64,000 nt of DNA from Callorhinchus milii. Its lineage: Eukaryota. Of the stretch, positions 10,598 to 61,044 are shown in pieces. A program made the position numbers and the translations under genes. Each line of letters begins with the position of its first letter. Within the stretch, counting starts at the first letter, position 1. The DNA lies in assembly GCF_018977255.1 (NCBI RefSeq), contig NW_024704743.1, positions 8,000,001 to 8,064,000 of the forward strand, in the 5' to 3' direction. The notes under the pieces were generated by a model. It saw only the letters and a list, made by a program, of their open reading frames with translations. It ran no database searches and was not told where the DNA came from.

Positions 10598-10935
10598 GTG
10601 GAGTCCTGTAACGTAGTGGTTAGAGCATTTGCCTCGCAAGCAAGAGGACCTGTGTTCGATTCCCTGGCAGGGCGAAACATTAGCCAAGTTTCTTTATTCC
10701 ACCTCTGTTTGCCTGGCAGTAAGTAGAAACCCGGTTGTTGGTCGATTGGCAGATCGATTTCAGGGGGGAATAATCTCTTTAAAAAATGACAATTTGGTCA
10801 CTCACTTGGCTTACTCATTTCTCCGACAATTTATACAGTCAATTCTGTGAAGCGCTTTACAGTATATTCTGCAAAGTGCTTTGAGATGTCTCAACGTACG
10901 TGATAAGGCTCTATATCAAATGCAAGGATGATTAT
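10598..10935 (+). mobile_element. tRNA-derived SINE, long subfamily
   Basis: gtggagtcctgtaacgtagtggttagagc head, gttcgattcc B box, shared tail. Confidence 0.9.
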
Positions 10936-15659: not shown

Positions 15660-17789
15660 GTGAATTAGGGCTACAAGTCTGAAATATCTACAAATATCGG
15701 TGGAACATTTGATGTATTGAATATGTGGGGTTCCTGGACTTTTCCTTCAAATGAAATACAAGCAGCTTCAGTGTCTTCATATCTGTCCAGCATTCATTTC
15801 CTTTCATCCATCAGGTCAGCCACCCACACACTACACAATCTGGATGAAACTGGTTCACTCGCTCACAGGCAGCAGCAGAAAGCTCAGTTGCAATGAAAGC
15901 GACTCTGAAAGTCCAGCAGCGAACTGATTCAAATGGTGATTTTCAGAAACAGTGGCTTAGTTACAACATTAGTTGCAGTCCAGAGTCTATTCTCCCCTGG
16001 GTTATCAGAAAATCTAGGTGCAGCCCCGTGTTTATCGTAAATACGAAATTACACCAAATAAAACCAAAAACGTTCAAAATAAAATGAAAAGTAATGAAGC
16101 GCCATCAGCGCCAGCTCAAGCAGCCTGCCGAGCCTTCCAGAAGCTTCTCGGCGGCTACCGCCCATTCCCACCAACCTTTGTATCGTTACCTGCAATTGGT
16201 TCGCTTCCCTCCAAACCAAAGCAAAAGCCCAGGTCCATCATAATGCAGCCTCTGGTTGGTCCCAACAATAGGCAACAACAACATCTTTATAATAATAATA
16301 CTTCAATTTGATAATGAGGCCTTATCACGTTGTTGAGACGTCTCAAAGCGCTTCACAGAATATATTGTAAAGTGAAATAACTATATTTTGTGGGTGAAAA
16401 GCGGCAGCCAATTATGCAAAGCAGTGTCCCGCAAACAGTAAGTGACCAAACTATTATATATTTGTTGAAGGGATTATTAGCCCCAGAAAGCAATCTGCCA
16501 ATCGACAAACAACTGGGTTCCTACTTACTGCTAGGTAAACAGAGGCATGCGGAGGAGGATGTCCTCCTGACGTGAAAAGCGTTATACAAATGTAATTTGT
16601 TGTTGTTGCTCCTCATTAACATCCACTCTACAGGGAGGTACAGAGCAAAATGCGAGACATAAACTAGTAAACACACTGGGAGCGGTGGGGGGAAGCATGA
16701 ATCTGTCTGGCTGCTAACCACTCTCTTTACTACTTAATAATAATCCTTGCATTTGATATAGTGCTTTATCACATCGTTGAGACACCACAAAAGCTCTTCA
16801 CAGGATACACTGTTTAAAGTGTAGTGATAGTTTTGTAGGCAAACACGACAGCCAATTTGCTTCCAGCAATGTACTTCAATATAAATGGATCAATCAAACA
16901 AGTCAGAAATGCCTGAACAAGATTACTTGGATATAGAACTGATTTTTTGGATCAAACGCAAGGTGAGTCAGAAACATGTATTTTCCAGAGACCAGACAGG
17001 TGAAATTAAACCCTGCAATTTATCAATTGATAATGCTCATTGCACAATTTTTAAAGATAACTGCAGAGCTCAGTATTGCAGAAATGTACAGGTTCTGCCA
17101 GCATTTGTGAAGCTAATTGAGAAATGTACAGTACTTGCTGTTACCTTATGCAAAACACAGGTGTCTGTGGGCGGTTTATAAAAAGCTGAACGAGTGCATG
17201 TGGGAGTACAGTGCAGCAGATGTGTGTTGGAATAGGGGCAGTCAATTGAGCCCCAGTGCTCCTGGTTCAATGCTAAACTGTACCATTCTCAAGTCAGACG
17301 CCAAATGGTGATTCCGCATCCCGGAACTGGAGATACACTTCCATAACTAAAGACGTGTTCACAGGAAGCACAGCCAGAAAGACAGAAGTGCCTGTGTTGC
17401 AAGGTGAAAAGACTGTTACAACAAATTACATTAGTAGAGCGCCTTTCATGTCAGTAGAAGATCTCAAAGCAATGGACAGTCAAGGATTTGCACCACACAG
17501 CAATGGACTGTGCCACTGTTAAAACAAAACATGATGTACAAGCTAGCAAAGTTTTCCATTTGTACTGTATTGATTCAAAAGTCAAATCTCGACTATTAAT
17601 GTACAATGCAACGGTACAAAATGCTGTTAAGTGTATATCTGTCTTTCAGGTGGAATCTTAAACCAGTTCAAGTGAATGTTAATGATCCTGATGCTATTTG
17701 AAAAGAGAAGGGCGTTCTCTCCTCATCCCAGCCAACAATCCCCCAAATAGTCCACAAATTGATTGCTCCATTTGCCTACAAAGTCATTA

Positions 17790-19177
17790 CCTGGGCCAAC
17801 AGAAAAGTGCGGGCCCACTTTTTCCGCAACAACAGCCCTTGTCCGCTACAAACATGCTACAAACAGCCCCTCGGGTACTAAAACTTTGCACGCAGTGAGC
17901 TAGGCTGTTTGCTCGACGCCGCTACAATGGCTGGAGAGGCTCAGATTGTGGGTGGGAAGCTGCGCGAGCGGGAAATCAACTTCTCTAGTGAGTAACCCTC
18001 GACAGAAAAATCAGCTGCGTCACACACTACTGTACTGTGACACATTCTGGGTAAGTGCTATACTATTCAAATTAAAATATTTAGCATTTTAAACATAACT
18101 ACATTTTCAGGAAATATATAACTATAGGGGTTGTTTGACTTTTTAGGTGGTACAATACAAAAATCTCCAAACATTTTTATCAATCCCGTGAGGAAGCCAA
18201 GGGGCAGCACATCAATTCTATTCTATCCAGGTGAGCCTTATGAAGGGGGGCAGTTATTTTGCCACATTTGCTGTCACACAATTGACCATATTCGCAAATT
18301 CACTGTTGATGAGCACGTGAAATCTCGGAAATATTGTGAAGGCAGCAGCAATGAAGAAAAAAAATGAAGGTAAAATACTTTTGCTATATATATTAAATGA
18401 AAATGTATCATTATTTGCTTTCATTTTCATAGAAAATCTTGAATTGTATTACAAAAGTTAATCTCCCTCTCCTTTTTGATTGAATTTTAAAAGCACATAA
18501 AACAAGCACAGCAAACAAAAACAAACAGACTGAACATTTCTAATGACATGAGGATCAATTTTTATTTTTGCCTTTCTAGGTGGATCTGGACCTCAAAGAC
18601 AACTCGCTCTGACAACCTGCTTCTCTAGAGCCACTGCATCATCTGCGGAAAGGAAATAATTCATATTGGACTTTGTCCTGTGTTTGACTCAGAGCAGACA
18701 TACCGCTTGAAAAAGCTCCTGCCTTCCAAGAGTTTCTATGCAAGTACACAAAACTTGGAGGGATTATTCCAACACCATCACAGTTTCATAATACATACTT
18801 GTAGGGGCTTATTCCTGGGCAGGAAGCATTTTTGAAGAAACATGTTGAGGATATGGATGTGTTCCTGGATGAGACTACTGATTGAAACTACACTTTTGCA
18901 TCTTTTGAAAGGTGTTATGTTTTGTTTTTGTTAAAGAAAACATTAAAAAATATTTTTTTCCCAATAATCTATGATGTGTTATTTCTTCAGGTTTAGGTTT
19001 TAAAAATGAGAAAAGAAAAACTGTAGGTTAGCAGCAACATGCATCTCTCAATAGCACAAATAAACCCTTAAACAAATAAACAAATAAACCAATTTTCCCG
19101 CAAAGTGCAGCGATTTTCTCCGCAAAATGTGTAAAGTGCTCTGCAATATTTTGCAAACACTTTTCTATTGGCCCAGG
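17790..19177 (+). mobile_element. Internally deleted CGGBP1-like hAT DNA transposon with an intron-containing transposase remnant
   Basis: Terminal inverted repeats cctgggccaacagaaaagtg / cacttttctattggcccagg. Decayed exons at about 18147-18369 and 18580-18885 resemble CGGBP1 and end in DETTD. Inserted into a SINE whose two halves flank it. Confidence 0.85.
18147..18885 (+). pseudogene. CGGBP1-like zinc-finger / hAT transposase N-terminal pseudogene (two exons, intron 18370-18579)
   Basis: GEPYEGGQLFCHICCHTIDHIRKFTVDEHVKSRK resembles CGGBP1 GELHEDGGKLFCTSCNVVLNHVRKSAISDHLKSK. ADIPLEKAPAFQEFLCKYTKLGGIIPTPSQFHNTYL resembles ANIPLEKADHPAVRAFLSRHVKNGGSIPKSDQLRRAYL (both from memory). Then FLDETTD*. 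Contains stops and a frameshift; GT..AG intron boundaries present. Confidence 0.8.
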
Positions 19178-20774
19178 CCATCACACTTTACAGAAACATT
19201 ATGAAGCACTTTGACATACTCAGCATTATAGGCCCCACATCAGGTGAAAAGATCAATGTATTTATTATTAACATATAAATATGAATACAAAAGCATGAAA
19301 GGCAAAAATCAACCTACAATGTTGTACCATGTGTCTTTATTTAATCAGGATTTCCTTTGACTCTGGAATGCTGTTTGTGTGACGGTGTTTTCTATAAAAT
19401 GACTGCACCAGTCAGCGTGATCAAATGGGGAAATCCCGAGTTAGATCACACCAAGCTATTAGCAGCAGGAATCTATGAGAATGCCAACACTGAAGGAATT
19501 AAACTCACAATATCCTATACATGTGGTTTATATTTTAGGTCAGAAAACACATTTAAGCAAGGTGATAATTTCAGCTAACGTTTGATCCAAACACAAGACC
19601 TTCTCCACCACCAAACCAGCTGAAAGGTTCTTTGTTTCCATTCCTTAAACTTGTTCCATACTGCATTCTAACAAACCTTGAAGCAAGCGGGTAAATGATA
19701 TCTTAATATTATAATTAAAATTATATATATGTGTAAAAAAAAGCTCTCAATCCATGACCGTTTGTGCGACATTGTTGTGCACAATTGGCTGCTATGTTTT
19801 GCCTACAAAATATATTGTCAACCCACTTTACAATATATTCTGTGAAGCGCTATGAGACGTCTCAATGACGTGGTAAGGCGCTATATCAAATGCAAGGATT
19901 ATTATTATAAGTAGGCGCTAGCCTGGCTCAGTTAGTAGCACTCTTGCCTCGGAAAAAAAATGTCTACATATTACAGTCACTATACTTTATGGTACATCCT
20001 GTGAAGCGCTTTGAGGTGTCGTTCCGACGTGAAAAGCGCTGTATCAAATGTAAGGATTATTATCATTGATAATATTTATATCCCAATACAAGGAGCACCT
20101 CAGAAATATGCGGTTAATGGCAATGTTTCCCTGCATCTCTATCAAACTATGAACAAGATCAAAATGATTATTTCAACAACGACAACTCGCATTTGTATTG
20201 TGTGCTTCAGGTGGGGGAAGTGCCTCAGACCGCTTCACAGTGGTGGAGCTAGACGCCAAACTTGGGTGAGAGGGGAGGTGACTGTAAGCATGGTCTTCAA
20301 GAATATATTTAAGGCTTCTATTTTTTGGTATTTATTCATTTCATTTTTCGGGGTTTATTTTTTTTAGCAATTTTTGAGTGACTGTTGTTTTCCAATGTCA
20401 ATTGGATAAACACCGATTTCCTTATCAGGGGTATTTTATAAGGGGTAAAACCCAAAATCAGAAGCCCTAAATATATTGCTTTCTCTCCATGCAGTCACCA
20501 GTAGAACGCACAACTTTTTTTCAAGATTTCTTGCAGTAAGCTTCCACCTTTGAGTGGGTATGAGAGGCCGGTAACAACAACAACTTGCATTTATAGCGCC
20601 CCTCGCACAGGATATCAACCCAGAGCGCACGGTAACGTAAGGTACAACTGATAAACACTAATAACAAGAATAAATAATAAGACGGTTGAAATGTGACCTT
20701 ATAATTGTCATCAACTAATGGTGAACATTTTGCTGGAAATAATTTCTACTAAACAAGTCGGCATTAGTTACCAA

Positions 20775-21040: not shown

Positions 21041-22071
21041 GAATTAGGTCAAAGAAACAACTAAGATAGTACTCATCTGAAGAGAGGGCTTTCTTCAAAC
21101 TGCCCTGGAATTGACAGTGATAAATACATGGGGGAGTTGTATTTAGTGGTTAAATGTGTGGAGTTCCCCGAGTTCCCCCTCCATGGTTCAGGCTACCCTG
21201 CAACATAATGCACTGCTGTTCACACACGTTCCACCACAAAGTAGGAGAGTGGGTTGATGCCTGCGAGCCCCCGATCTCAGCAACGTCATCTGGTGAGATG
21301 CTCAGCAGGGAGAGTGAGTCATTTGCCACAAGTTCAGTAAAAGCCAAATAAGTAAAACCCAGAGAACTAAATCGGTTTCAAGAGCGGCAGGTATCTGAGA
21401 GCAGGTTGACTGCAGGGTGCCTTTTCAACTAGCCAACAATGTGTGGTTTGGGAAGTCCTACGAAAAAGGAAAGGATGAAAATGCATCATTGTAAAAAATT
21501 ACTCACCATAAAAAAAGGAGTGGGCTGGATGACACCATTGCCAATACAAGTTAGGAGGACAAATGTGTCAGAAGTTAAAGTTCACAGCTGCTTTGAGTTC
21601 TGTTCTGTTGTGCATCAACACCCTACTTGCTATAAGATGATGTTCATTCCACCAGCCTGGCTTCAACTGAACCCAGCTACGAGAGGTGAGCAGACACTGT
21701 GCCAATCCAGTGCGCTGCCCAGGCAACAACCTGAGTACTTACAGCTCAACCAGGATGGCCTTGTAGACTGATAGAAATGCAGACTTTGCATACAGTACAT
21801 TACACATGTACTAACTACCACATTGTTTCACTCTGCTAGAATGTTTGACACAAGTTCACCATCCAATGGGCTCTCACCTTCTTGTGGAAGTGCACAGGAT
21901 GGGACCGATGCCTCTCCTCCCGATGTATTGTGATGCTCCCAGAATCAAACAACCTCTCCAGACTGGCAGGCAAGGCTCGCACATGAATGATAACCAATTG
22001 AACTGACTGGTATCTTTGAAACCAACCATAGCTCAGTGGAAGCACCAGATAACATCCACAGTGTGTGCAAC

Positions 22072-22637
22072 AGGACTGGGCAGCCTGGCACTATCAGCAC
22101 TGGACAAGCTGGCATCATCAGCACTGGACAGAGTGGCATCATCAGCACTGGGCAGCCTGGCATCATCAGCACTGGGCAGCCTGGCATCATCAGCACTGGG
22201 CAGCCTGGCATCATCAGCACTGGGCAGCCTGGCATCATCAGCACTGGACAGAGTGGCATCATCAGCACTGGGCAGCCTGGCATCATCAGCACTGGGTAGC
22301 CTGGCATCATCAGCACTGGGCAGCCTGGCATCATCAGCACTGGGCAGCCTGGCATCATCAGCACTGGCAGCCTGGCATCATCAGCACTGGGCAGAGTGGC
22401 ATCATCAGCACTGGGCAGCCTGGCATCATCAGCACTGGGCAGCCTGGCATCATCAGCACTGGGCAGCCTGGCATCATCAGCACTGGGCAGCCTGGCATCA
22501 TCAGCACTGGGCAGCCTGGCATCATCAGCACTGGGCAGCCTGGCATCATCAGCACTGGGCAGCCTGGCATCATCAGCACTGGGCAGCCTGGCATCATCAG
22601 CACTGGGCAGCCTGGCATCATCAGCACTGCGCAGCCT
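22072..22637. repeat. Minisatellite, 24-bp unit GCACTGGGCAGCCTGGCATCATCA, about 23 copies
   Basis: Directly visible tandem array with recurring GGACAGAGT/GGGCAGAGT variant units. Confidence 0.97.
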
Positions 22638-22758
22638 GTTATGTGGATCAGAAATCCTGGATTCCTTCTTCACTCTCTCACTGCTTAAACATCTCAATTG
22701 CGAGGGAGGAAGTTAATATACCAAGCAGAAATTTGAGAGTACAATTCCAGAGAAGAAA

Positions 22759-26345: not shown

Positions 26346-26850
26346 AAAAGATGCACAATGTCTATAGCAAAACTCGATTTTAATTTCAGCAAAAATAAAA
26401 GCAGGGATGTAACATGGGGCAACAATTGGTGTCACTGTTGAACGTGGACTGAAGGATTGTAGCCAGACATGATAAACCAGGGACGACTGTCTATAACCAG
26501 GGACAACTGCCTCCAACGATCATTACTTACCCTTTTCATTTTTTGGTGCAGGTCTGGGTGGCCTTGGAGCATCACTGCTTGTGTCTGTCACCAGATACCA
26601 ACAGAACTAGCGGACACAGTCTGATATTTATTCTTTTACTCGGTTCAGTTTAACTCATAAATGTAATTGTTATCGCTTTCTCCATCTTAGACAGATCACC
26701 CTATCTGTTGTGTCTCCATTTTCAGGGGAGTTTCAAGTCAGCAGCCTGATACAGAGTGAGACCTTACACCGAATGCAAGGATTATTATTATACTGTTCAT
26801 GAAGACCATATGGAGAGACTATAGTGGTGTATCTGGGTGCTTTATGTTTT

Positions 26851-27897
26851 ACTGTCTCGTGCGGTGTCCCTCAGGGCTCTGTCCTCGGTCCCCTCCTCTT
26901 CACCCTCTATATGCTCCCCCTGTGGTGACATCATCCGCAGACATGGGGTTAACTTCCACATGTATGCGGATGACACCCAACTCTCCCTTTGCTCCTCTAC
27001 TCTCAACTCCACGACCACCGATGTCCTGACAGCTGCCTGTCCGACATCGAGTCCTGGACGAGAGACAACTTTCTTCAGCTCAACGTGCGTAAAACTGAGG
27101 CCCTCCTGATTGGCTCACGTCAGCGCCTCCGCACCTCAGGCGCTGACAGCATCAGCATCCAAGGCTGCACTCTCCACCTCTCAAAGCCAGTCAGGAACCT
27201 CGGCGTTCTGTTCGACCCTGAGCTGTCCTTTCTCCCTCATATCCGCACCACAACTGGCACCGCCTTCCACCACCTCCGGAACATCGCCAGACTACGGCAC
27301 TACCTCACCCCTCACGCTGCTGAAACTCTGGTCCACGCCTTTATCACCTCAAGGCTGGACTACGGGAACTCTCTCCTCATCGGCCTTCACCGGCACCTCC
27401 CTCCACAAGCTCCCACCCTCGCTCGCCTCCACTGGCTTCTCATCCCCAAGAGGATCAAATTCAAGATCCTCATCCTCACCTACAAGGCCATTCACGGCCT
27501 CGCTCCCTCCTACCTCTCCGACCTACTATCCCCCTACCTACCTGCCCGTACTCTCCGTTCCTCTGGCTCCGGTCTACTCCACATCCCCCGCCCCAACCGC
27601 CCGACCATCGGTGGCCGGGCCTTCAGCCTCTCAGCCCCGAGGCTCTGGAACTCCATCCCCCAGTGCCTTCACCGCCTCCTCCCTTTCCTCCTTCAAGGCT
27701 GGTCTCAAGACATTTCTCCACAGCTGTGCCTTCAGCTCCCCTCTCGACTCTCTACCCTCTCCTCGCTCCCTCCCTTCCCTCACCTCACCCTGACCATTTC
27801 CCCCCTGCTCGGGTCCCGACCCAACTGTACAGCGCCTTGGGTCGTCCTCCCAACGTGAAAGGCGCTCTATAAATGCAATCTTGTTGTTGTTGTTGTT
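26851..27897 (+). mobile_element. L2-clade LINE, 5'-truncated and frameshifted, same family as the 40-kb copy
   Basis: [15 protein letters not shown] region followed by [23 protein letters not shown]; internal deletion relative to the 40-kb copy; tail ...ggcgctctataaatgcaatc(ttg)n. Confidence 0.95.
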
Positions 27898-31835: not shown

Positions 31836-32521
31836 GAGATCTGCGTGACACTCCAGTGCAGTTTTGGAGCAGTTCTGTATTGTCGGAGGTGCCGTCCTTC
31901 AGATGAGACATTAATCCGCTGCCTGTTCAGGTGGACATTAAAGATCCAATGGCACAATTACAAAAAGAAAAAAAAACCTTCAAATATCCTTACTAACAAT
32001 CCCCCAAATAATAAAAAAAGTTACTCACTTAGTAATAATAATAACCCTTGCATTTGATACAATGCTTATCAAAGTATTGAGACATCTCAAAGTGTTTCCA
32101 CAGGATATACTGCAAAGTGAATTGACTGTGTATTTTGCAGGCCAGTTGTGCACAGCAATGTCTCAAAAACAACCGTGGAGTTTGTGACTAATTTTAATTG
32201 GGAGATGGTTCAGGGCTAATTGAGGGTCGTTGCTGTGTGCAAATTGGCTGCCACATTCGACTACAAATAGTCACTACACTTTACAGTAAAATCCTGTGAA
32301 GTGCTTTGAGATTTGACAATGGCATAATAAAGTGCTACATCAAATGCAAGAATTATTATTATCATTCATCCTGCTCTCCTTTGCACTGTCTCCGGGTCTA
32401 TGTAGTCCCCTTATGTTGCAGAAAGCAAAACTGTATGCAATACGTTAGATGCAGACTGGCCAGGGCACTTACACTTGCATCTGAACTCAACTGGTCTGAT
32501 AATACTGTAACTTGTTTGCCC

Positions 32522-32546
32522 NNNNNNNNNNNNNNNNNNNNNNNNN
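32522..32546. other. Assembly gap (N run)
   Basis: 25 Ns. Confidence 0.99.
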
Positions 32547-33105
32547 TTCAGTGTTTAGAGAGTTTATCCAAAATGTAAGGTCATTTACTGCATCATTTAT
32601 AGTGGGAATTCTAATGTAAAATGGCTCCCACACTTGCATATTATTCTTATCTATTTTGGGTTAAATAATTGAAACCAACTTACGTTAAGAGCTGTTTGAA
32701 TAAATATATTTGTGTCAGAGTAACCCAAACATAGACTCCACATCAGTGATACCAGTATTATATCAATTGAAAAATTATCCAGCAATGCCCAGTATAAATA
32801 GATCCCTGTCTAACATTAATATGAATTGATTCCTCCAGGTAGGTGTCCAGCGAAAACATACCACCAGAGTTAACTACCTTTATCCTTCTGCAATTGTATA
32901 TTTGGATTTCAATGGCCCTAAGTTTGTCGCAGTGCTAAACCACAGTAAAATGTTACTATACTCCCAGGCATGGCATAACATGTAACAGATCTTGCTGTAA
33001 TCACGCTATAATCTACAGATTATGCTGAGGACGTCCTCCCGACGTGAAAAGCCCTATATCAAATGCAAGGATTATTATATATATTATTATATTGTTTGAA
33101 TCTGA

Positions 33106-36100
33106 CAGTCTGGGCCATAGAAAAGTGCGGAAATGTTTGCCAAAAATTGCGGGGCGTTTGCAAATCCTGCAGAAAATTGCGGAGGGTTCATTGGTGCTAT
33201 TGAAAGGCGCATTAAAACTATAGGCATATATTTCCTGAACACGTAGTTGTGTTTAAAATACTAAAAATGTTAACCAAGAATTGGTTGCAAGAGCTCAGTT
33301 TAGTTCAGTCGCCAGGCGAAGCCGATTTCCCGCTCACGCCACTTCCGTAATCCCAACACTCCCCGCATTCGCACCGCGCATTTGTAATCGGAGCCGCTCT
33401 CCCCACATTAGCAACGTCGAGCAAACAGCAGGAGAGGTCCAGGGCCTATCACACTGTGTGTACAGGTGTGTAGCGGGGCCTGGCACACTGTGTGTACAGG
33501 TGTGTAGCGGGGCCTGGCACACTGTGTACAGGTGTGTAGCGGGGCCTGGCACACTGTGTACAGGTGTGTAGCGGGGCCTGGCACACTATGTACAGGTGTG
33601 TAGCGGGGCCTGGCACACTGTGTACAGGTGTGTAGCGGGGCCTGGCACACTGTGTACAGGTGTGTAGCGGGGCCTGGCACACTGTGTACAGGTGTGTAGC
33701 GGGGCTTGGCACACTGTGTACAGGTGTGTAGCGGGGCCTGGCACACTGTGTACAGGTGTGTAGCGGGGCTTGGCACACTGTGTGTACAGGTGTGTAGCGG
33801 GGCCTGGCACACTGTGTACAGGTGTGTAGCGGGGCCTGGCACACTGTGTGTACAGGTGTGTAGCGGGGCCTGGCACACTGTGTACAGGTGTGTAGCGGGG
33901 CCTGGCACACTGTGTACAGGTGTGTAGCGGGGCTTGGCACACTGTGTGTACAGGTGTGTAGCGGGGCCTGGCACACTGTGTACAGGTGTGTAGCGGGGCC
34001 TGGCACACTGTGTACAGGTGTGTAGCGGGGCCTGGCACACTGTGTACAGGTGTGTAGCGGGGCCTGGCACACTGTGTACAGGTGTGTAGCGGGGCCTGGC
34101 ACACTGTGTGTACAGGTGTGTAGCGGGGCCTGGCACACTGTGTACAGGTGTGTAGCGGGGCCTGGCACACTGTGTGTACAGGTGTGTAGCGGGGCCTGGC
34201 ACACTGTGTACAGGTGTGTAGCGGGGCCTGGCACACTGTGTACAGGTGTGTAGCGGGGCCTGGCACACTGTGTGTACAGGTGTGTAGCGGGGCCTGGCAC
34301 ACTGTGTACAGGTGTGTAGCGGGGCCTGGCACACTGTGTGTACAGGTGTGTAGCGGGGCCTGGCACACTGTGTGTACAGGTGTGTAGCGGGGCCTGGCAC
34401 ACTGTGTACAGGTGTGTAGCGGGGCCTGGCACACTGTGTACAGGTGTGTAGCGGGGCTGGCACACTGTGTGTACAGGTGTGTAGCGGGGCTGGCACACTG
34501 TGTACAGGTGTGTAGCGGGGCCTGGCACACTGTGTACAGGTGTGTAGCGGGGCCTGGCACACTGTGTGTACAGGTGTGTAGCGGGGCCTGGCACACTGTG
34601 TACAGGTGTGTAGCGGGGCCTGGCACACTGGTGTACAGGTGTGTGTAGCGGGGCCTGGCACACTGTGTACAGGTGTGTAGCGGGGCCTGGCACACTGTGT
34701 GTACAGGTGTGTAGCGGGGCCTGGCACACTGTGTACAGGTGTGTAGCGGGGCCTGGCACACTGTGTACAGGTGTGTAGCGGGGCCTGGCACACTGTGTGT
34801 ACAGGTGTGTAGCGGGGCCTGGCACACTGTGTACAGGTGTGTAGCGGGGCTTGGCACACTGTGTACAGGTGTGTAGCGGGGCTTGGCACACTGTGTGTAC
34901 AGGTGTGTAGCGGGGCCTGGCACACTGTGTGTACAGGTGTGTAGCGGGGCCTGGCACACTGTGTACAGGTGTGTAGCGGGGCCTGGCACACTGTGTACAG
35001 GTGTGTAGCGGGGCCTGGCACACTGTGTACAGGTGTGTAGCGGGGCTTGGCACACTGTGTACAGGTGTGTAGCGGGGCCTGGCACACTGTACAGGTGTGT
35101 AGCGGGGCCTGGCACACTGTGTACAGGTGTGTAGCGGGGCCTGGCACACTGTACAGGTGTGTAGCGGGGCTTGGCACACTGTACAGGTGTGTAGCGGGGC
35201 CTGGCACACTGTGTGTACAGGTGTGTAGCGGGGCCTGGCACACTGTGTACAGGTGTGTAGCGGGGCCTGGCACACTGTGTACAGGTGTGTAGCGGGGCCT
35301 GGCACACTGGTGTACAGGTGTGTAGCGGGGCCTGGCACACTGTGTTACAGGTGTGTAGCGGGGCCTGGCACACTGTGTACAGGTGTGTAGCGGGGCTTGG
35401 CACACTGTGTACAGGTGTGTAGCGGGGCCTGGCACACTGTGTACAGGTGTGTAGCGGGGCCTGGCACACTGTGTACAGGTGTGTAGCGGGGCTGGCACAC
35501 TGTGTACAGGTGTGTAGCGGGGCCTGGCACACTGTGTACAGGTGTGTAGCGGGGCGTGGCACACTGTGTGTACAGGTGTGTAGCGGGGCTTGGCACACTG
35601 TACAGGTGTGTAGCGGGGCTTGGCACACTGTGTACAGGTGTGTAGCGGGGCTTGGCACACTGTACAGGTGTGTAGCGGGCCTGGCACACTGTGTACAGGT
35701 GTGTAGCGGGGTTTGGCACACTGTACAGGTGTGTAGCGGGGCTTGGCACACTGTGTACAGGTGTGTAGCGGGGCTTGGCACACTGTACAGGTGTGTAGCG
35801 GGGCCTGGCACACTGTACAGGTGTGTAGCGGGGCCTGGCACACTGTACTGGTGTGTAGCGGGGCTTGGCACACTGTACAGGTGTGTAGCGGGGCCTGGCA
35901 CACTGTGTGTACAGGTGTGTAGCGGGGCGTGGCACACTGTGTACAGGTGTGTAGCGGGGCTTGGCACACTGTGTACAGGTGTGTAGCGGGGCCTGGCACA
36001 CTGTACAGGTGTGTAGCGGGGCCTGGTACACTGTACAGGTTTATAGCGGAGAAAGGCGTTTGTGGAAGATTCCTCAGAAAAAGTGCATCCGCATGTTTCT

Positions 36101-36113
36101 GTTGACCCAGCTG
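33106..36113 (-). mobile_element. Non-autonomous copy of the same CGGBP1-like hAT family, carrying an expanded minisatellite
   Basis: Ends cagtctgggccatagaaaagtgcgg and ccgcatgtttctgttgacccagctg match the TIRs of the 17.8-kb element. Internal motifs (ctgtttgctcgacg, gagcgggaaatc, gtgctattga) are shared in inverted orientation. No coding remnant. Confidence 0.75.
33450..36049. repeat. Minisatellite, 32-bp unit TGTGTACAGGTGTGTAGCGGGGCCTGGCACAC (30/34-bp variants by TG slippage), about 80 copies
   Basis: Directly visible tandem array; explains the repetitive long ORFs in the track. Confidence 0.98.
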
Positions 36114-38359
36114 ATGACTGTTAACACAAAGTATTAAGCCAAAGTGATACTAACTCAGCTGGAGTTTGGATCATCAGAGTTTGCTTGTTTGGTAGTGCTC
36201 CAATTTACTTTAGCTGTATTATGCCTTTACTTCTTTCAATCAGCAAAGAGTTGTACAAATTGAAACAAAGGATAATGGAAGCTGGGAAGATTAGTATTAT
36301 TTTTCTGTCCTCATTTATTACATGTTCTTAAAGTTAAGCTGCAGTATTGTAATTGTCATGACTCTAAAATCTGATCTATTTGATCAAAATATGATGTAAA
36401 AGTTAAACTCACAACTTTCAAGATTGCGTGGCTGGTTGGCCAGCAAAAGATTTTGTGCAGTGAATTGCCATGTAAGTTGCACACCCAAGTTGGCTGGGAT
36501 GTCCTTCCGACCTGAAAGGTGCTCTATAAATGTAATTTTGTTGTTTTGTTGTTGGCAGGTCACAATACCACAAAATAATCATGCCTAAAAAACAATATAC
36601 AATCTAACTTATCTATAGCAACTTTCATTGCGATAACAATATGTTCAGCAGGGAATTTGTTACCTATACCTTACAGCAAAAAATGCAGTCCTCGTTACCC
36701 AGTCATATGATTGGTAAAGTGCATAAGTATATGTGAAAAAATCACATTCAAACAGGGTTACGATGGTCAAATTAATAAATAAGAAACATCTGCAGGTACA
36801 TTTTTGTCCTTCCCCCTGCTCCCATTAGAATAGAATATTAGAAGATTCACCTTTCAGTTACTTTTAGGAGAGATCTCCTGGAGCACGTCTGAGTGGCAGT
36901 GGCAGAGGCCTGAGAGCAACAACTTGCATTTATACTGCGCCCTTCATGCCGGAGACAGTATCTTGGAGCTCAGAGAGCAGAGTGTCTGGCTCTCTTGGCT
37001 CAGAAAGATCAGGATACTGGGAAGAAAATTAGAGGAATTTGATATCCTCAGAAAAGTTTCATAAAAACAAAATTGGAGCATAATATAATTTTGAAAAAGT
37101 ACATGCTTTGCAATTCATTGCATGGTCCCAACTGTTTATATAATATACACCTGCACAGACTATTTTTATTTCCTTCCTGCTTTGGCGCCAAGCCCATATA
37201 TTAGATGGGTATCATTACACCACCCTACATAAGTATAACTAACAAAATTGTAACCAGGTTTGTTGGACCATAGGCCTTTAAACTTGCTATGTATGTATTT
37301 CACTTTGCCAAAAGTCAACTTTCATATTTGTGGTATGGCTGTTTATAAGTACACAGCCATCCCAAGGATCTGGTGAGGTATAATCCATAGTTCAAAATTC
37401 AGTACAAAAAAGATTGCATTGAATCGGGAGTAAAATAAGGTGAAATAAGGCAAGGTGTCCCATTACATGTTACTCAATACTAAGCATCGCTAACATCACT
37501 GACATATTACAGAGATCCACCATCTCCATTTATCAATTACAGCAAAATCATTCATTCCTCTAGCCCTGGTGTATCATTGGTGAATTCAATTACAACCTCT
37601 AGACTTTTTCGGAAGCAAATGCACAGTCCTACATTCTTCTCCACTGAGACTAATGATCCCATACAAAATGCACACTAACAGCAATGAATATCCTTAAAAC
37701 GCTCAAAAAATGGTTCCCTACCTGACCATCACTTGGTCTGCATTCTGTCAACCTTTCATATCTACGCTGAACAAATACCAAAGATTTGGTTGTATCATTG
37801 CGTAATTCAAATAGTCTAAAATAGAAAGTTGTGATTTCAGATTGCAATTCCTTCTCTCAGTCAAAAAATCAAATACAACAACTATGTAGCCTTGCCTTAA
37901 GAAGATTATATTTAATGCTGCAGATACCATAATCCATCCAAGCAACTGAACTTGACATTTGCTCACAACCTCAGAATGAATGCCAAGCCTCAAACATTAG
38001 GCTCAAAACACTTTTTAAAAACAGTTTGATAAACAGAGATGATCAGCAAATCAAAAGGTGAGAGAAACGTTACCTCCACATAGTTCCTAATCTAAAAAGT
38101 CATAATTCTCCCAGTGCTAAAAGTCTGATCTTAGGTGCAATTATAATGACCCTTCTGAAAAGTTGCACATCATATGAGCAGGTGAGATTGCCTGCCAAGC
38201 ATATTTTCTGAAAGTTGGGTGAAAATGATGTATTTTTTTTAAAAAGCATTGAAATTATAGCAGTCAAATTAGCCGCAGGCACCAAGATACACGTTTCTTT
38301 GAATAACTTAAGGGTCAGATCTAGATCAGTTTTTGCATTAAACCAGACAAACAGGATGT

Positions 38360-38700: not shown

Positions 38701-40253
38701 AATTAATATCTGCTGAAAATATCATTTAACAAAGTGTATAGTCCTTTTACATGAATTTTAACCCAACCATGACCAGATCCACAAAAATATTCAAGGTTTC
38801 TGTTTGTATTTTCAATTCCAAAGGGACTGTAGGTATTGTAATCAGTTTTCCCACTGTGGACGATGTGGTGGGATGAGATCAAGTGGATCGATGAGCCTTC
38901 TTCATCCGAACTGATCTTGTGATTTGTATAAAAATTCCTGAATACAATAGAGAATGAGAAATTGGGAATATCTCATCCCAAAAAATAATTTATCATAAAA
39001 ATAATCCTTGCATTTGATAAAGTGGCTTTCACGTCTGGAGGATGTCTCAAAGCTCTTCACAGGATATACTGAAAGGATAATACTGTATATTTTAGTAGGC
39101 GAACATGGCAGCCAATTTGCGCACAACAATGTCCCACAAACAGCTATGAATTGAATAACAAATTTTATTTGGGCGATTATTGTTCGGACACTGCAAGAAA
39201 CTCCCTTCTCTTTTTGAACAGTACATGGGATCTTTAATGTCCACCCAAACGGGTAGATAATAATAATCCTTACATTTGATAAAGGGCCTTATCATGTCTT
39301 CCGAGACGTCTCAAAGTGCTTCACAGAATATACTGTAAAGTGAATTGACTATTTTGTGGGCAAATCGCACAGCCAATTGCGCACAGCAGTGTCCCACAAA
39401 CAATTGTGTGAGTGACCAATTTTTTTTAAATTAAGGAATTATTTGGGAGCTTAATTTAACATTTCATTCGAAGGATGGTGCCTCCAACCATTCAGCACAC
39501 CTTCAGCACTACATTGGAACGTCAGCCAAGATTATATGAGTTCAAAGTCCTGATGTGGGATGTGAACCCACAACTTTCTGACTCAGAGGCGAGAGTGTTA
39601 CCATTACTCATATGGGCTTTTGCATCCTATTCACACTGAGAAACTAACGCTTTGCGATATATGCCTTCATTACAACCAGACTCAATTATGCCAATGCCCT
39701 CCTTGTCAGCCTTCCATCAGAGAATCAAAAAAATTATTATATGAATTTACATCTTTTTATTGGAACATCTACATAGGAATGCCTTAGAAAAGGTTGTAGT
39801 TCAGTTATCTTCATCAGCCATTTTGTGCATGTCAACAAAAGTGGCTGTATTCTGTTTGATGATGCGATCAACATCTACAGAGTATTTAATACCTGTCTGA
39901 AAGTCAACAAGTGGCCAAATATCAATTTGCAGATTTGACAAAGTTAGACAATGAGCAGAAAATGACTTTGCTGAGAAGTCCATCTTAATAACCCAGTCAA
40001 GGCTGTGATGCTCCCACTTTTTACATAGAATTAAATAAAGATAAATAGGTATGATGGGTCAAATGACATCCTTGTTTGCTGTACAATTCTAATGATTCCA
40101 TACTCATAAATACTGAATATTCTCTTAGAAAAAAACTAGGAACAGGATATTCTATCCATCAAGCTACTCGACCAATTGCATTAGACATGGTGAATCTTTC
40201 AATCCTATTTCCCTGCCTTTTCCCCATGCCTTTTCCCCATATCTCTTAACACC

Positions 40254-41765
40254 AACAACAACAAGATTCCATTTATAAAGCGCCTTTCACGTCAGGAGGA
40301 CGTCCCAAGGCGCTGCACAGTTGGGTCATGACCCGAGCAGGGGGGAAATGGTCAGGGTGAGGGGAGGGAAGAGGGAGGGGAAATGGTCAGGGTGTGGGGA
40401 GGGAAGGGGGGGAGGGGGAAGAGAGTCGAGAGGGGAGCTGAAGGCACGGTCAAAGAGAAAGGTTTTGAGACCGGCCTTGAAGGAGGAAAGGGAGGAAGCA
40501 AGGCGAAGGCACTGGGGGATGGAGTTCCAGAGCCTGGGGGCTGAGAGGCTGAAGGCCCGACCACCGATGGTAGGGCGGTTGGGGCGGGGGACGTGGAGCA
40601 GACCGGAGCCAGAGGAACGGAGGGTACGGGCAGGTAGGTAGGGGGATAGTAGGTTGGAGAGGTAGGAGGGAGCAAGGCCGTGAATGGCCTTGTAGGTGAG
40701 GATGAGGATCTTGAAATCAATCCTCTGGCGGATGGGGAGCCAGTGGAGGCGAGCGAGGGTGGGAGTGATGTGGTCCCGAAGCCTGGTGCGGGACAGTACA
40801 CGAGCTGCAGAGTTCTGAATGACCTGCAGCTTGTGGAGGGAGGTGGCGGGAAGGCCGGCGAGGAGAGAGTTCCCATAGTCCAGCCTTGAGGTGACAAAGG
40901 CGTGGACCAGGGTTTCAGCAGCGTGAGGGGTGAGGTAATGGCGTAGTCTGGCGATGTTCCGGAGGTGATGGAAGGCGGTGCCAGTTGTGGTGCGGATGTG
41001 AGGGAGAAAGGACAGCTCAGGGTCGAACAAAACGCCGAGGTTCCTGACTGGCTTTGAGAGGTGGAGAGTGCAGCCTTGGATGCTGATGGTGTCAGCGCCT
41101 GAGGTGCGGAGGCGCTGACGTGAGCCAATCAGGAGGGCCTCGGTTTTTCGCACGTTGAGCTGAAGAAAGTTGTCTCTCGTCCAGGACTCGATGTCGGACA
41201 GGCAGACTGTCAGGACATCGGTGGTCGTGGAGTTGAGAGTAGAGGAGGAAAGGTAGAGTTGGGTGTCATCCGCATACATGTGGAAGTTAACTCCATGTCT
41301 GCGGATGATGTCACCGAGGGGGAGCATATAGAGGGTGAAGAGGAGGGGACCAAGGACAGAGCCCTGAGGGACACCACATGAGACAGTACGGGGGGTGGAG
41401 GAGAAGCCATTCATCGAGACAAAGTGAAGACGGTGAGAAAGGTACGACCTAAACCATTCAAGGACAGTGCCTTGAAGGTTGAGGTGGGAGGACAAGCGGT
41501 GGAGGAGGATAGCGTGGTCGACCGTATCGAATGCTGCCGATAGGTCGAGGAGGACGAGGAGACAGAGGGAGCCCTGGTCACAGATGGTCAGGATATCATT
41601 GGTGACCTTGACCAGGGCAGTTTCTGTGCTATGGGCAGCACGGAAACCTGACTGAAGGGGTTCGAAAAGAGAATGGGTGGAAAGGAAAGAGCGCAGTTGG
41701 GAGGCGACAACTCTTTCCAAGACCTCGGAGAGAAAGGGGAGGTTGGAGATGGGCCGGTAGCTTGA
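40254..41765 (-). mobile_element. L2-clade LINE, 5'-truncated young copy; uninterrupted RT C-terminal frame 40326-41771
   Basis: Motifs [55 protein letters not shown]. 3' stem-loop tail with (TTG)n. TAACACC flanks both sides (40247-40253, 41766-41772). Confidence 0.97.
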
Positions 41766-42010
41766 TAACACCCTTAGTTCCCAAGTTTATATCTGGTTCT
41801 CTTAAACAATCCAATTGTTACTGCCTCTGCAGAATTCTAGAGAAATGCATTCCTTATTCCCATAACCTTGTAGGTGAAGAAATGTTTTCTGATCTCACTT
41901 TTAACAGGCTTATATTATGCCTATGTCCGCTCATTTTGGATATCTGTATCAGAGGAAAGAGTTATCTATCATCTAGATTGTTGATTCCTTTCATTATGTT
42001 ACCTACAATT
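41766..42010 (-). mobile_element. CR1 3' fragment, host of the 40-kb L2; continues at about 40130-40250
   Basis: IRKHFFTYKVMGIRN-like CR1 terminus; sequence is continuous across the L2 insertion. Confidence 0.65.
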
Positions 42011-56792: not shown

Positions 56793-57451
56793 AGGGGGTC
56801 CCCGGGAGGGGGGGGTCCCCGGGAGGGGGGGGGTCCCCGGGAGGGGGGGGGGTCCCCGGGAGGGGGGGGGGTCCCCGGGAGGGGGGGTCCCCGGGAGGGG
56901 GGGGGTCCCCGGGAGGGGGGGGTCCCCGGGAGGGGGGGTCCCCGGGAGGGGGGGGTCCCCGGGAGGGGAGGGGTAGGGGGGAGGGGGGTCCCCGGGGAGG
57001 GGTAGGGGGGAGGGGGGTCCCCGGGAGGGGGGGTCCCGGGAGGGGGGGTCCCCGGAGGGAGGGGAGGGGGGGGGGTCCCCGGGGAGGGGTAGGGGGAGGG
57101 GAGGGTCCCCGGGAGGGGGGGTCCCCGGGAGGGGAGGGGGGGTCCCGGGGGGGGGGAGGGGAGGGGGGGTCCCCGGGAGGGGGGGGAGGGGAGGGGGGGT
57201 CCCCGGGAGGGGGGGTCCCCGGGAGGGGAGGGGTAGGGGGGAGGGGGGGTCCCGGGGAGGGGTAGGGGGAGGGGAGGGTCCCGGGAGGGGGGGTCCCGGG
57301 AGGGGAGGGGGGTCCCCGGGAGGGGGGGAGGGGAGGGGGGTCCCCGGGAGGGGAGGGGGGGTCCCCGGGAGGGGGGGTCCCCGGGAGGGGAGGGGTAGGG
57401 GGAGGGGAGGGGGGGGTCCCCGGGAGGGGGGGGGAGGGGGAGGGGAGGGGC
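56793..57451. repeat. G-rich tandem repeat (CCCCGGGAGGGGGG(G)nT, about 16-18 bp, with GGGGAGGGGTAGGGGG spacers)
   Basis: Directly visible; source of the Pro/Gly-rich pseudo-ORFs. Confidence 0.95.
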
Positions 57452-58139
57452 ACAGTGCAGATGAGCAGCTGAAAGCCGAGTCCCAGTTGCTGATCGGGTT
57501 TGACAGTTGATCGCCGCTCCGGTTACGCACTTTTGGAGCAGAGAGAGAGATCTCACACTGTAAACCAAATTGTTTAAGACAAAACAATCCAAACCCCTCT
57601 CTCTGTGGCAAATACCTCCACACAGTGCGGCATCAAAACCGCCAGAGGTACAGCAGCGCGCGCGGCACTGAGCACTCAATACATCGCGCGATGGATGAGG
57701 AGAGACCGAGAGAAACAATTCCACTCCAAACAAAACCCCTCCATCGGCGCCTTCAACAGGAACGTCACTTCTAAAAGAAAAATAAACGCCACTTCAAATA
57801 TTACGCGAACCTTTATTTGTTGAGCAAAAACCCCCCACAAAAAACCCGCATAACGCGATAAATACTCCTGTCCTGTGCCGTCTGATGGCGACGGCGACTG
57901 TCTGAGCCCCTCTGTGAGTGTGCACTGTGTTGTCGTCCCCCCACTCCATCATTATTATTATTATTACTACAATGATAACGATTATTATTTTTAAAAAAAA
58001 TGATTCCGTGGCTCTCAACTAAAGTCTGCGCGGTGCAGACCCCCAAACTGAACTGCTCATCTGTGCGAGGAAACGACAGTCTGACTCCACCATTATTATT
58101 TTTGTGATTATTGTTGTTGTTGTTATTGATCACCGCGGT

Positions 58140-58378
58140 CCGGGGGGGGGGCCGTGAGGGGGGGGGGCGTGAGGGGGGGGGCGGGCAGTGAGGTGGGGGC
58201 GGGGGGGCCGGGCCGGGGGGTGGGTCGGGGGGGCGGGCAGTGAGGTGGGGGCGGGGGCCGGGCCGGGGGGGGGGGGGGGCGGGCCAGGGGGGGGGGGCGG
58301 GCCGGGGGGGGGTGGGTCGGGGGGGGCCGGGCAGTGAGGTGGGGGCGGGGGCCGGGGCCGGGGTCGGGGGGGGGGGTG
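58140..58378. repeat. G-rich repeat with three GGGCAGTGAGGTGGGGGCGGGGG units
   Basis: Directly visible. Confidence 0.9.
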
Positions 58379-58792
58379 ACCGGTGGTGTATTGGGGGCGG
58401 GTTTCCCGCGCTCCATTCAAATTTCTCGCCACAGAACGTATCCCCCAAAAAAGAATCGAACGCGCAGAGCGAGAGCGAGAGAGTGCGCGCGCGCAGCGAG
58501 GGGTGGGGGGCGGGGGGGGGGTCACCATCTCCTGGGTAACCCGTTACCAGGGCAGCGGCTGTACTGGGCTCGAGCGAGCGAGCGAGTGAGTGAGTGAGTG
58601 CGTGCTGTCGTAAAATTTATGGGGGGGGGGAGGGAGGCGGGCGGTGGTGGAGGTGGAGGAGAGAGAGAGAGCGCGAGAGAGGGGAAAGTGTCGCAAAGAG
58701 GTGGGTCGGGCGGGCGGGCGGTCGGTTGCACGCGCTGCGCGTCCGTCCTGGAATTTGACAGCGCTTATCAATGAAAGGAGAGCGAGCGGATC

Positions 58793-58850
58793 ATGGCGGA
58801 TGGCCCCAGGTGTAAGCGCAGAAAGCAGGCGAACCCGAGGAGGAAAACCG
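58793..58850 (+). CDS. ZEB1: ZEB1 (zinc finger E-box-binding homeobox 1) first coding exon; intron 1 runs beyond the window end
   Basis: ATG in strong context (ggatcATGG) encodes MADGPRCKRRKQANPRRKT, the ZEB N-terminus. The 58 coding nt end at a phase-1 donor G|GTGAGT (58851). There is no in-frame MKQPI extension as in ZEB2, and the exon sits in a CpG-rich first-exon setting, which favours ZEB1. Confidence 0.9.
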
Positions 58851-58932
58851 GTGAGTGGAGTTTGGAGAGAGGTGGGAGAGAGAGTGAGTGTGTGAGAGAG
58901 AGAGAGTGTGTGAGAGTGAGAGAGATCACTGT

Positions 58933-58964
<32 letters not shown>

Positions 58965-59159
58965 GGGCAAAAGGGGGGTAACTCCAGAGAGGGTCAGGGA
59001 GAAGGTGCTCTCCGGGAAGGGAGGAGAGGGGGAGAGAGAGAGTCCCGGTCGAAGTGTTCGGGCGGCGTTTCTGTTCTGTCTTCAGTGCCGGGGCTCGGGC
59101 TGCGGGGATTGTAAAGTGTTGTTAAAAGTTATAATTGGACAGTTCTGCTGCCGTTTCTC

Positions 59160-59162
<3 letters not shown>

Positions 59163-59202
<40 letters not shown>

Positions 59203-59466
59203 TGAGTGTGTGAGTGAGTGTGTGAGTGAGTGTGAGAGAGTGAGTGTGAGAGAGAGTGAGTGTGTGAGAGAGAGAGTGAGTGTGTGAGAGAGTGAGTGAG
59301 AGAGAGAGAGTGAGTGTGAGAGAGAGAGTGAGTGTGAGAGAGAGAGAGAGTGAGAGAGTGAGTGTGTGAGAGAGAGAGAGTGAGTGTGAGAGAGAGAGAG
59401 AGAGAGTGAGTGTGAGAGAGAGAGAGAGAGTGAGTGTGTGAGAGAGTGAGAGAGAGAGAGAGAGTG
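59163..59466. repeat. Compound (TG)n/(GA)n/(GAGT)n microsatellite in ZEB1 intron 1
   Basis: Directly visible. Confidence 0.95.
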
Positions 59467-59809: not shown

Positions 59810-60755
59810 ACACCCCCTCACCCTCCTCCTTCCCACCACACACTAACCCCCCTCACCACCACCACACACTACCCCACACTACACCCCCCCTCACCACCAC
59901 CACACCATTACCCCTCACCACCACCACACCATTACCCCTCACCACCACCACACCACCCCCCCTCACCACCCCACACTACCCCCCCTCACCACCCCACACT
60001 ACCCCCCCCTTACCACCCCACACTACCCCCCCTCACCACCACCACACACTAACCCCCTCACCACCACCACACACTAACCCCCCCTCACCACCACCACACA
60101 CTACCCCTCACTACCCCACACTACACCCCCCACACTACACACCCCCTCACCACCACAACACCATTACCCCTCACCACCACCACACCATTACCCCTCACCA
60201 CCACAACACCATTACCCCTCACCACCACCACACCATTACCCCTCACCACCCCACACTACCCCCCCTCACCACCCCACACTACCCCCCCCTCACCACCACC
60301 ACACCATACCCCTCACCACCACCACACCATACCCCTCACCACCACCACACCATACCCCTCACCACCACCACACCATACCCCTCACCACCACCACACACTA
60401 CCCCCCTCACCACCACCACACACTACCCCCTCACCACCACCACACACTACCCCCTCACCACCACCACACACTACCCCCTCACCACCACCACACACTACCC
60501 CCTCACCACCACCACACACTACCCCCTCACCACCACCACACACTACCCCCTCACCATCACCACACACTACCCCCCATCACCACCACATACTACACCCCCT
60601 CATTCCTCTCATCACCAACACACTCCCCCCTCATCCCCACCACACACTATCCCCCCCTCATCCCCCTCATCACCACCACACACATTACCCCCCCATCACC
60701 ACCACGCACTACCCCCCATCACCACCACACCCCCCCCCAATCACCACCACACACT
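59810..60755. repeat. C/A-rich degenerate minisatellite (CACCACCACACACTACCCCCT-like)
   Basis: Directly visible. Confidence 0.95.
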
Positions 60756-60825: not shown

Positions 60826-61044
60826 ATGTTTGTGTGTGTTGTATGTGTGGTATGTGTTGTTTGTGTGTGTGTTGTTTGTGTGTGTGTGTGGTGTGTTTGT
60901 GTGTGTGTGTGTGTTGTGTTTGTGTGTGTTGTTTGTGTGTGTGGTGTGTGTTGTTTGTGTGTGTGTTGTTTGTGTGTGTGTTGTGTGTTGTTTGTGTGTG
61001 TGTTGTGTGTTTGTGTGTGTGGTGTGTGTGCGCGCGCGTGTGTG
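60826..61044. repeat. Imperfect (GT)n/(GTT) microsatellite
   Basis: Directly visible. Confidence 0.95.

Follow-up and report, generated by a model that had tools for sequence, protein, structure and literature searches.

An E2-box minisatellite upstream of a ZEB1-type gene in Callorhinchus milii and its probable origin in a transposon end

The E2-box CAGGTG recurs in a long tandem array upstream of a ZEB1-type gene in Callorhinchus milii, which raises the question of whether the array serves the regulation of that gene by its own product or has come to carry the motif in some other way. In the window, the whole stretch of 64,000 nucleotides that was analysed, CAGGTG occurs 118 times, compared with 45 expected from shuffling. 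Of these occurrences, 39 lie outside the array, and the excess is due to the array alone.

The array and its unit

TRF calls the array at 33457–36049, with a period of 32, 80.6 copies and 94% matches. Parsing unit by unit places 80 full units on the plus strand at 33451–36027 (29–35 bp, modal 32 bp), followed on the same strand by a degenerate last unit at 36028–36060 that reads CAGGTT instead of CAGGTG, and the whole array including this unit extends over 33451–36060. TAGCGG is present in all 80 full units and CAGGTG in 79, on the plus strand throughout, the exception being the unit at 35840, which reads CTGGTG. Unit length is 30–34 bp in 78 of the 80, with a single 29-bp and a single 35-bp unit, and the spacing from box to box is likewise 30–34 bp, with a single exception of 60. 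A first-pass annotation had described about 80 co-oriented CAGGTG boxes in units of 30–34 bp over 2.6 kb, and this description is borne out. The boxes are all co-oriented because the array was amplified head-to-tail, and the 79 boxes therefore represent one event, not 79 independent ones. This is a caution for the reading of motif arrays near a matching gene, which amount to one event and not to dozens.

Variation between units lies chiefly in the number of TG repeats, together with one C>T variant that has spread, and diversity is higher toward the 3' end of the array. All 11 units of 30 bp belong to the second half of the array (p=0.0004), where the C>T variant is found in 13 units, compared with 3 in the first half (p=0.01). 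In the first 50 units, no higher-order periodicity appeared in the order of the variants at any lag from 1 to 12 (all p at least 0.088), and the longest repeated run of unit variants is six units. Polar variants without a higher-order period are the ordinary pattern of minisatellite turnover.

An assembly gap of 25 N lies at 32522–32546, upstream of the array, and no N was seen between the array and the exon; the gap does not separate the array from the gene, as had been stated. The right flank is covered by contigs of all three large DNA runs examined, from one study, with 3–5 differing letters each, and these contigs reach only 39–45 letters past 36050 in the direction of the array, as expected at the edge of a repeat. 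Positions 33440–38000 were found in five of the 24 sequencing-run rows listed, from two studies, every row being of one organism, and none of the 24 was an RNA run containing this interval. The word share of 33440–38000 in the runs was 0.74–0.78, array and flank taken together, and in a run with a small share there was a single 205-base contig of the flank, the rest being SINE fragments. Within the right flank at 36153–37772, eight single-letter differences and one 1-base deletion were seen among the three runs, with A>T at 36153 in all three.

These data also bear on whether the array could be an assembly artefact, its length or variant pattern having been generated largely from a shorter repeat. 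Single-base indels resembling read errors in six unit types (F, H, I, J, K and N; seven copies in total) would be in keeping with such an origin, as would the fact that the runs are represented by contigs only, with no array-spanning read seen. The variant order without higher-order periodicity, the limit of six units on repeated runs and the contigs of three runs that end at the repeat edge all argue against it, and an artefact is considered extremely unlikely.

As regards other properties of the unit, a role as a special hairpin was not supported (z = -1.11; equal folding in 27 of 200 shuffles). On the minus strand of the array (33451–36027) most units carry a perfect RSS heptamer, and 60 of them then have a 12-bp spacer and a nonamer that agrees at best at 5 of 9 positions with the consensus. 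A reading of the array as a series of 12-bp RSS (recombination signals) was rejected, the nonamer being too poor, and the heptamers amount to no more than a cryptic signal. In a metagenome scan, 19 bases of the unit gave a single match, in an unrelated context and without a repeat, and this was taken as chance. A second minisatellite is present at 22071–22638 (24 bp, 23.7 copies), nearly CpG-free and without an E-box; it has an 8-base word in common with the 32-bp unit, probably by chance.

The host element and the origin of the unit

Both flanks of the array recur elsewhere in the window. In a self-comparison of the window, the left flank at 33218–33429 matches 18127–17904 (E 1e-11) and the right flank at 36032–36130 matches 17861–17771 (E 6e-9), in colinear order, and 33090–33212 can be aligned to 19201–19039. 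Inverted termini are found at 33112–33131 and 36088–36107 on either side of the array (20 nt, 75% complementary) and at 17783–17809 and 19158–19184 in the second place (27 nt, 85% complementary), and an alignment of the four ends has 19 invariant columns. Because both flanks match colinearly and both places end in inverted repeats, the array is placed within a decayed, internally deleted hAT transposon at about 33100–36120, here called element A. The second place is a sister copy of the same family, copy B (17783–19184, minus strand, 1.4 kb), which has the opposite orientation to A and is without an array. These two family copies within the window agree in 169 of 240 columns, an identity of about 70%.

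On the plus strand, the parts of A outside the array are a decayed left terminal inverted repeat at 33100–33131, with an uncertain exact terminus; a left body at 33132–33450, with GCGG at 33127, 33149 and 33179 and a CpG-rich patch adjoining the array; and a right subterminal region with the right terminal inverted repeat at 36061–36120. The body and the right end are homologous to the stretches of B given above. The best target-site duplication agreed at 5 of 8 positions among 255 placements for A and 225 for B, which is chance level, the ends being decayed.

The composition of the ends and a coding remnant in B provide indications of the family. GCGG occurs at 20–31 per kb at the four element ends, compared with 2.2 per kb in the middle of B and 1.9 per kb in the background. 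Copy B contains a broken, CGGBP-like transposase front end on the plus strand (18206–18861), composed of a BED-type zinc finger (18206–18364), a short piece (18578–18625) and a second piece with a stop (18691–18861). The 79-aa piece of this remnant retrieved 16 proteins at E<=0.001 (phmmer), several of them spurious, and the true relatives map in order over the three segments. Among eight relatives looked up were five distinct Callorhinchus milii entries, one relative being named 'CGG triplet ...' and one flagged low quality, and the closest named clusters in the Atlas were zf-C2H2_12 and zf-BED. A Pfam search with five frames of the peptide of B gave no match, with two weak ones below the cut-off, and CGGBP1 is likewise without a Pfam match (PMC8097297). 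Word-indexed and PDB searches with the same peptide found nothing, and tblastn of the transposase relatives gave no match in the flanks of A.

The family of A and B is provisionally assigned to the CGGBP-type hATs (hAT-19-like), the BED-finger/Hermes-type DNA-binding descent being read from B only. Most CGGBP-like hAT proteins have a preference for CGG motifs, and these motifs match their own subterminal regions (PMC8097297). The elements described here resemble the CGGBP-like hAT transposons, mainly hAT-19, of that study in the BED-type finger and second DNA-binding segment of B and in their CGG-containing subterminal motifs. They differ in that A is without a coding part, B is broken, and neither a catalytic domain nor a target-site duplication was found; the likeness is drawn from motifs and relatives.

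The seed of the array unit can be located in copy B at about 17840–17900. The B segment 17903–17835 aligns to the unit as two blocks, with the roughly 28 intervening bases missing from A, and the match between a two-unit stretch and B 17897–17843 scores above 1985 of 2000 shuffled sequences and above 2698 of 2704 segments of background. TAGCGG, kept in every full unit, matches a subterminal motif of B. The unit is very probably an amplified subterminal segment of element A, with its origin in the hAT end, and the degenerate last unit is the least changed remnant of that segment. At the position homologous to the CAGGTG of the array, B has CATGTT and the last unit has CAGGTT, and the E2-box is therefore probably a derived change carried by the amplification, its polarity being taken from these two diverged outgroups and not from a family consensus.

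In the history given by these comparisons, a CGGBP-type (hAT-19-like) cut-and-paste transposon landed about 23–26 kb upstream of ZEB1 and decayed, with loss of the coding middle. Much later, a subterminal stretch of about 32 bp containing TAGCGG, made by a small deletion, was amplified head-to-tail to about 80 copies, presumably by slippage or unequal exchange. CAGGTT probably became CAGGTG by a T>G substitution in a founder unit rich in TG, either before or during amplification, and nearly every copy would then have its E2-box by hitchhiking. Units that are 94% homogeneous, compared with copies A and B that are about 70% identical, imply that the array is young or still turning over, and it is most likely evolving as an unselected minisatellite.

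The birth of tandem repeats in non-autonomous DNA transposons is a published process, with miDNA4 and Xstir as examples in the available part of one account (PMC9659126). As described there, miDNA4 of Xenopus tropicalis and Xstir in Xmix are alike to the present case in that an element with inverted repeats supplied the monomer, from its interior or a subterminal part, and that amplification took place on the spot between intact ends. The present case differs in its host, a relic of a CGGBP-type hAT, and in that, of the two copies compared, only A was seen to carry the array. Even if inert, the array would show the birth of a homotypic site array, by one motif-creating change in a transposon end and subsequent amplification, with the state before amplification still readable in the sister copy.

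The E2-box and its CpG setting

Conservation does not single out the E2-box from its surroundings. One of six distinct types of substitution falls within the box, compared with 1.1 expected, and the hexamers next to it are equally kept. The box thus does not exceed the remainder of the unit in conservation, although six events give little power and the test is a weak one. The box also arises easily from the CA, TG and GG composition of the unit, being contained in 24% of dinucleotide-preserving shuffles of the unit, compared with 2.0% of background 32-mers. Moreover, the unit holds 31 different hexamers, each at up to about 80 copies. The E2-box is found in one of the eight longer arrays of the window; if each array has a probability of 2%, one or more such arrays are expected in about 15% of cases, which is modest and not high. 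Given the frequency in shuffles, this array chance and the number of hexamers per unit, the coincidence with ZEB1 is only mildly unusual and not compelling. Counting against the chance reading is that the sole polarisable derived change happens to create a site for the product of the neighbouring gene.

The inherited transposase site may be operative instead of the E-box. On this reading the array would be bound by a CGGBP-like protein, derived from a domesticated hAT DNA-binding domain or a remnant of one, which recognises TAGCGG and perhaps shields its CpG. The intact TAGCGG of all 80 units and its homology to the subterminal motif of B are consistent with such a platform, as are the binding of CGGBP-like hAT proteins to motifs of their own subterminal regions (PMC8097297) and the existence of several C. 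milii CGGBP-like entries. However, these entries seem to be predictions made from decayed copies, with one of them flagged low quality, and the hexamers adjacent to the motif are as conserved (79–80 of 80), so that a CGGBP-like platform is judged very unlikely.

The CpG of the unit has been retained in 80 of 80 units (P about 0.02–0.3 under 10- to 3-fold CpG hypermutability). In the body of element A next to the array (33105–33450) CpG o/e is 1.01, compared with 0.71 in B, 0.65–0.68 in young L2 copies and 0.36 in intergenic sequence. This genome is globally methylated, according to the available part of a published study (PMC5437953), and the o/e of 1.01 and the intact unit CpG in such a genome hint at open or germline-unmethylated chromatin over the unit and the adjoining patch. 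A reading of the patch at 33.2–33.45 kb as the promoter of a minus-strand gene was dropped as the main reading because the patch is transposon body. The high CpG retention of 33105–33450 is possibly a reflection of an unmethylated state.

The ZEB1 neighbourhood and possible functions of the array

The only gene recognised within the window is a ZEB1-type gene, which we take to be ZEB1 rather than ZEB2. Its first coding exon, at 58793–58850 on the plus strand, is MADGPRCKRRKQANPRRKT, then GTGAGT, and has a CAGGTG of its own at 58807–58812; around it lies a CpG island at 57450–59150 (o/e 0.85). The exon starts about 22.7 kb from the end of the array, in agreement with the distance of some 23 kb first reported. 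No strong CTCF-like sites were found between the array and the promoter, compared with 1.7 expected, and there were none in the window. From the array to the window end there are 13 single E2-boxes, 12 of these up to and including exon 1, and those near the ZEB1 start include 55267, 56710 and 58807.

The isolated CAGGTG at 31928, 47212, 48299, 48850 and 55267 appeared by eye to lie in one SINE-like dispersed repeat, and a retroposon family therefore spreads the motif and raises its background. Rfam gave only six matches, all tRNA-like SINE heads, at 10602, 15303, 28403, 29056, 43894 and 56156. Two young, 5'-truncated LINE copies are also present, at 26850–27897 (plus strand) and 40248–41790 (minus strand), the second with a 486-codon open frame. 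We take both copies to be of L2/CR1 type and the frame to be of reverse-transcriptase type.

ZEB1-bound tandem-repeat silencers are said to have been described by Balestrieri et al. 2018 (Cell 173:1150). In the accessible text of papers through which that work is known here (PMC12064536, PMC11934927, PMC10250210), the silencers are like the present array in having dense identical ZEB1 motifs in a tandem repeat. They differ in being bound and repressive, in belonging to epithelial genes and in lying mostly near telomeres, whereas the present array, a candidate for such binding, is upstream of ZEB1 itself and in a cartilaginous fish. Tandem repeats bound by ZEB1 have thus been recognised as a class, and binding of the array by ZEB1/2, Snail or E-proteins is plausible when chromatin is open, its chance being put at about even.

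Binding may have consequences without selection. An array occupied by ZEB, Snail or E-proteins could repress locally or behave like an enhancer, and its effect on ZEB1, or on some gene beyond the window, would be small and unselected. A parallel is offered by the human-specific CDH2 intronic VNTR, in which the available text (PMC12064536) counts 23 ZEB1 motifs and reports binding of ZEB1 in EMSA, and the high motif density and retained CpGs of the present array would suit a similar role. That intron-1 VNTR enhancer is likewise a tandem repeat of lineage-specific occurrence that neighbours an EMT gene and has more than 20 ZEB1 motifs, but, on the same source, it is intronic, mostly of CAGGTA, backed by ChIP and EMSA and 528 bp long, compared with 2.6 kb here. 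Repeats of the present genome are, however, mostly methylated, as far as LINEs and SINEs are covered in the accessible part of the source (PMC5437953), and among the 31 hexamers of the unit one other than E2 may be operative; a bound, weakly active by-product is considered unlikely. If the array were bound and active, the class of ZEB1-bound tandem-repeat silencers would extend to cartilaginous fish and to the locus of ZEB1 itself, and allele length would constitute a natural dose series.

The most far-reaching alternative is a co-opted negative-feedback silencer, in which ZEB1 would bind the array through its two zinc-finger clusters, recruit co-repressors and damp its own promoter 23 kb away, with allele length tuning the dose. 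ZEB1 does bind DNA with two finger clusters, as stated in the available text of PMC7459422, and 79 boxes at a spacing of 30–34 bp would suit two-cluster binding. Tandem repeats dense in ZEB1 motifs silence in human cells, according to the accessible parts of three papers (PMC12064536, PMC11934927, PMC10250210), and autoregulation of ZEB1 has been reported, to judge by the title of a 2007 paper on ZFHX1A. The apparently derived box, the kept CpGs and the lack of a strong intervening CTCF-like site are also compatible with feedback. In contrast, the box is without excess conservation, the array is young and lies within an old transposon relic, and single E2-boxes are already available near and in exon 1. 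Furthermore, the published cases, in the available text of PMC12064536, concern epithelial genes that are ZEB1 targets. Negative feedback through the array is accordingly regarded as improbable.

The proposal of a candidate autoregulatory platform made in the first-pass annotation stands in its motif content and position. Autoregulation itself is without positive support, in view of the amplification inside a hAT element, the absence of the box from B and the last unit, and the lack of extra conservation, and the array is probably not a selected ZEB1 feedback element. The full sequence of events, in which a hAT subterminal transposase-binding segment would have acquired an E2-box by one substitution, been amplified 80-fold in unmethylated chromatin and been co-opted as a length-variable ZEB1 silencer, is correspondingly a long shot. 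If true, it would represent a young autoregulatory loop on a master EMT gene, formed out of the end of a transposon, of which the birth can be traced. The best overall reading is a young, transposon-born minisatellite that is unselected and carries a chance E2-box by hitchhiking, and we consider this reading fairly probable. Among the matches listed in the literature search, none dealt with an array of E-boxes upstream of ZEB1.

Other tandem repeats lie nearer to the gene. G-rich, GA, CAC-rich and TG repeats at 56794–57450, 58141–58376, 59170–59466, 59833–60755 and 60827–61030 hem in the CpG island of the ZEB1 promoter and the first part of intron 1. The G-rich repeats near the ZEB1 start could form G-quadruplexes, and are far closer to the start than is the E-box array.
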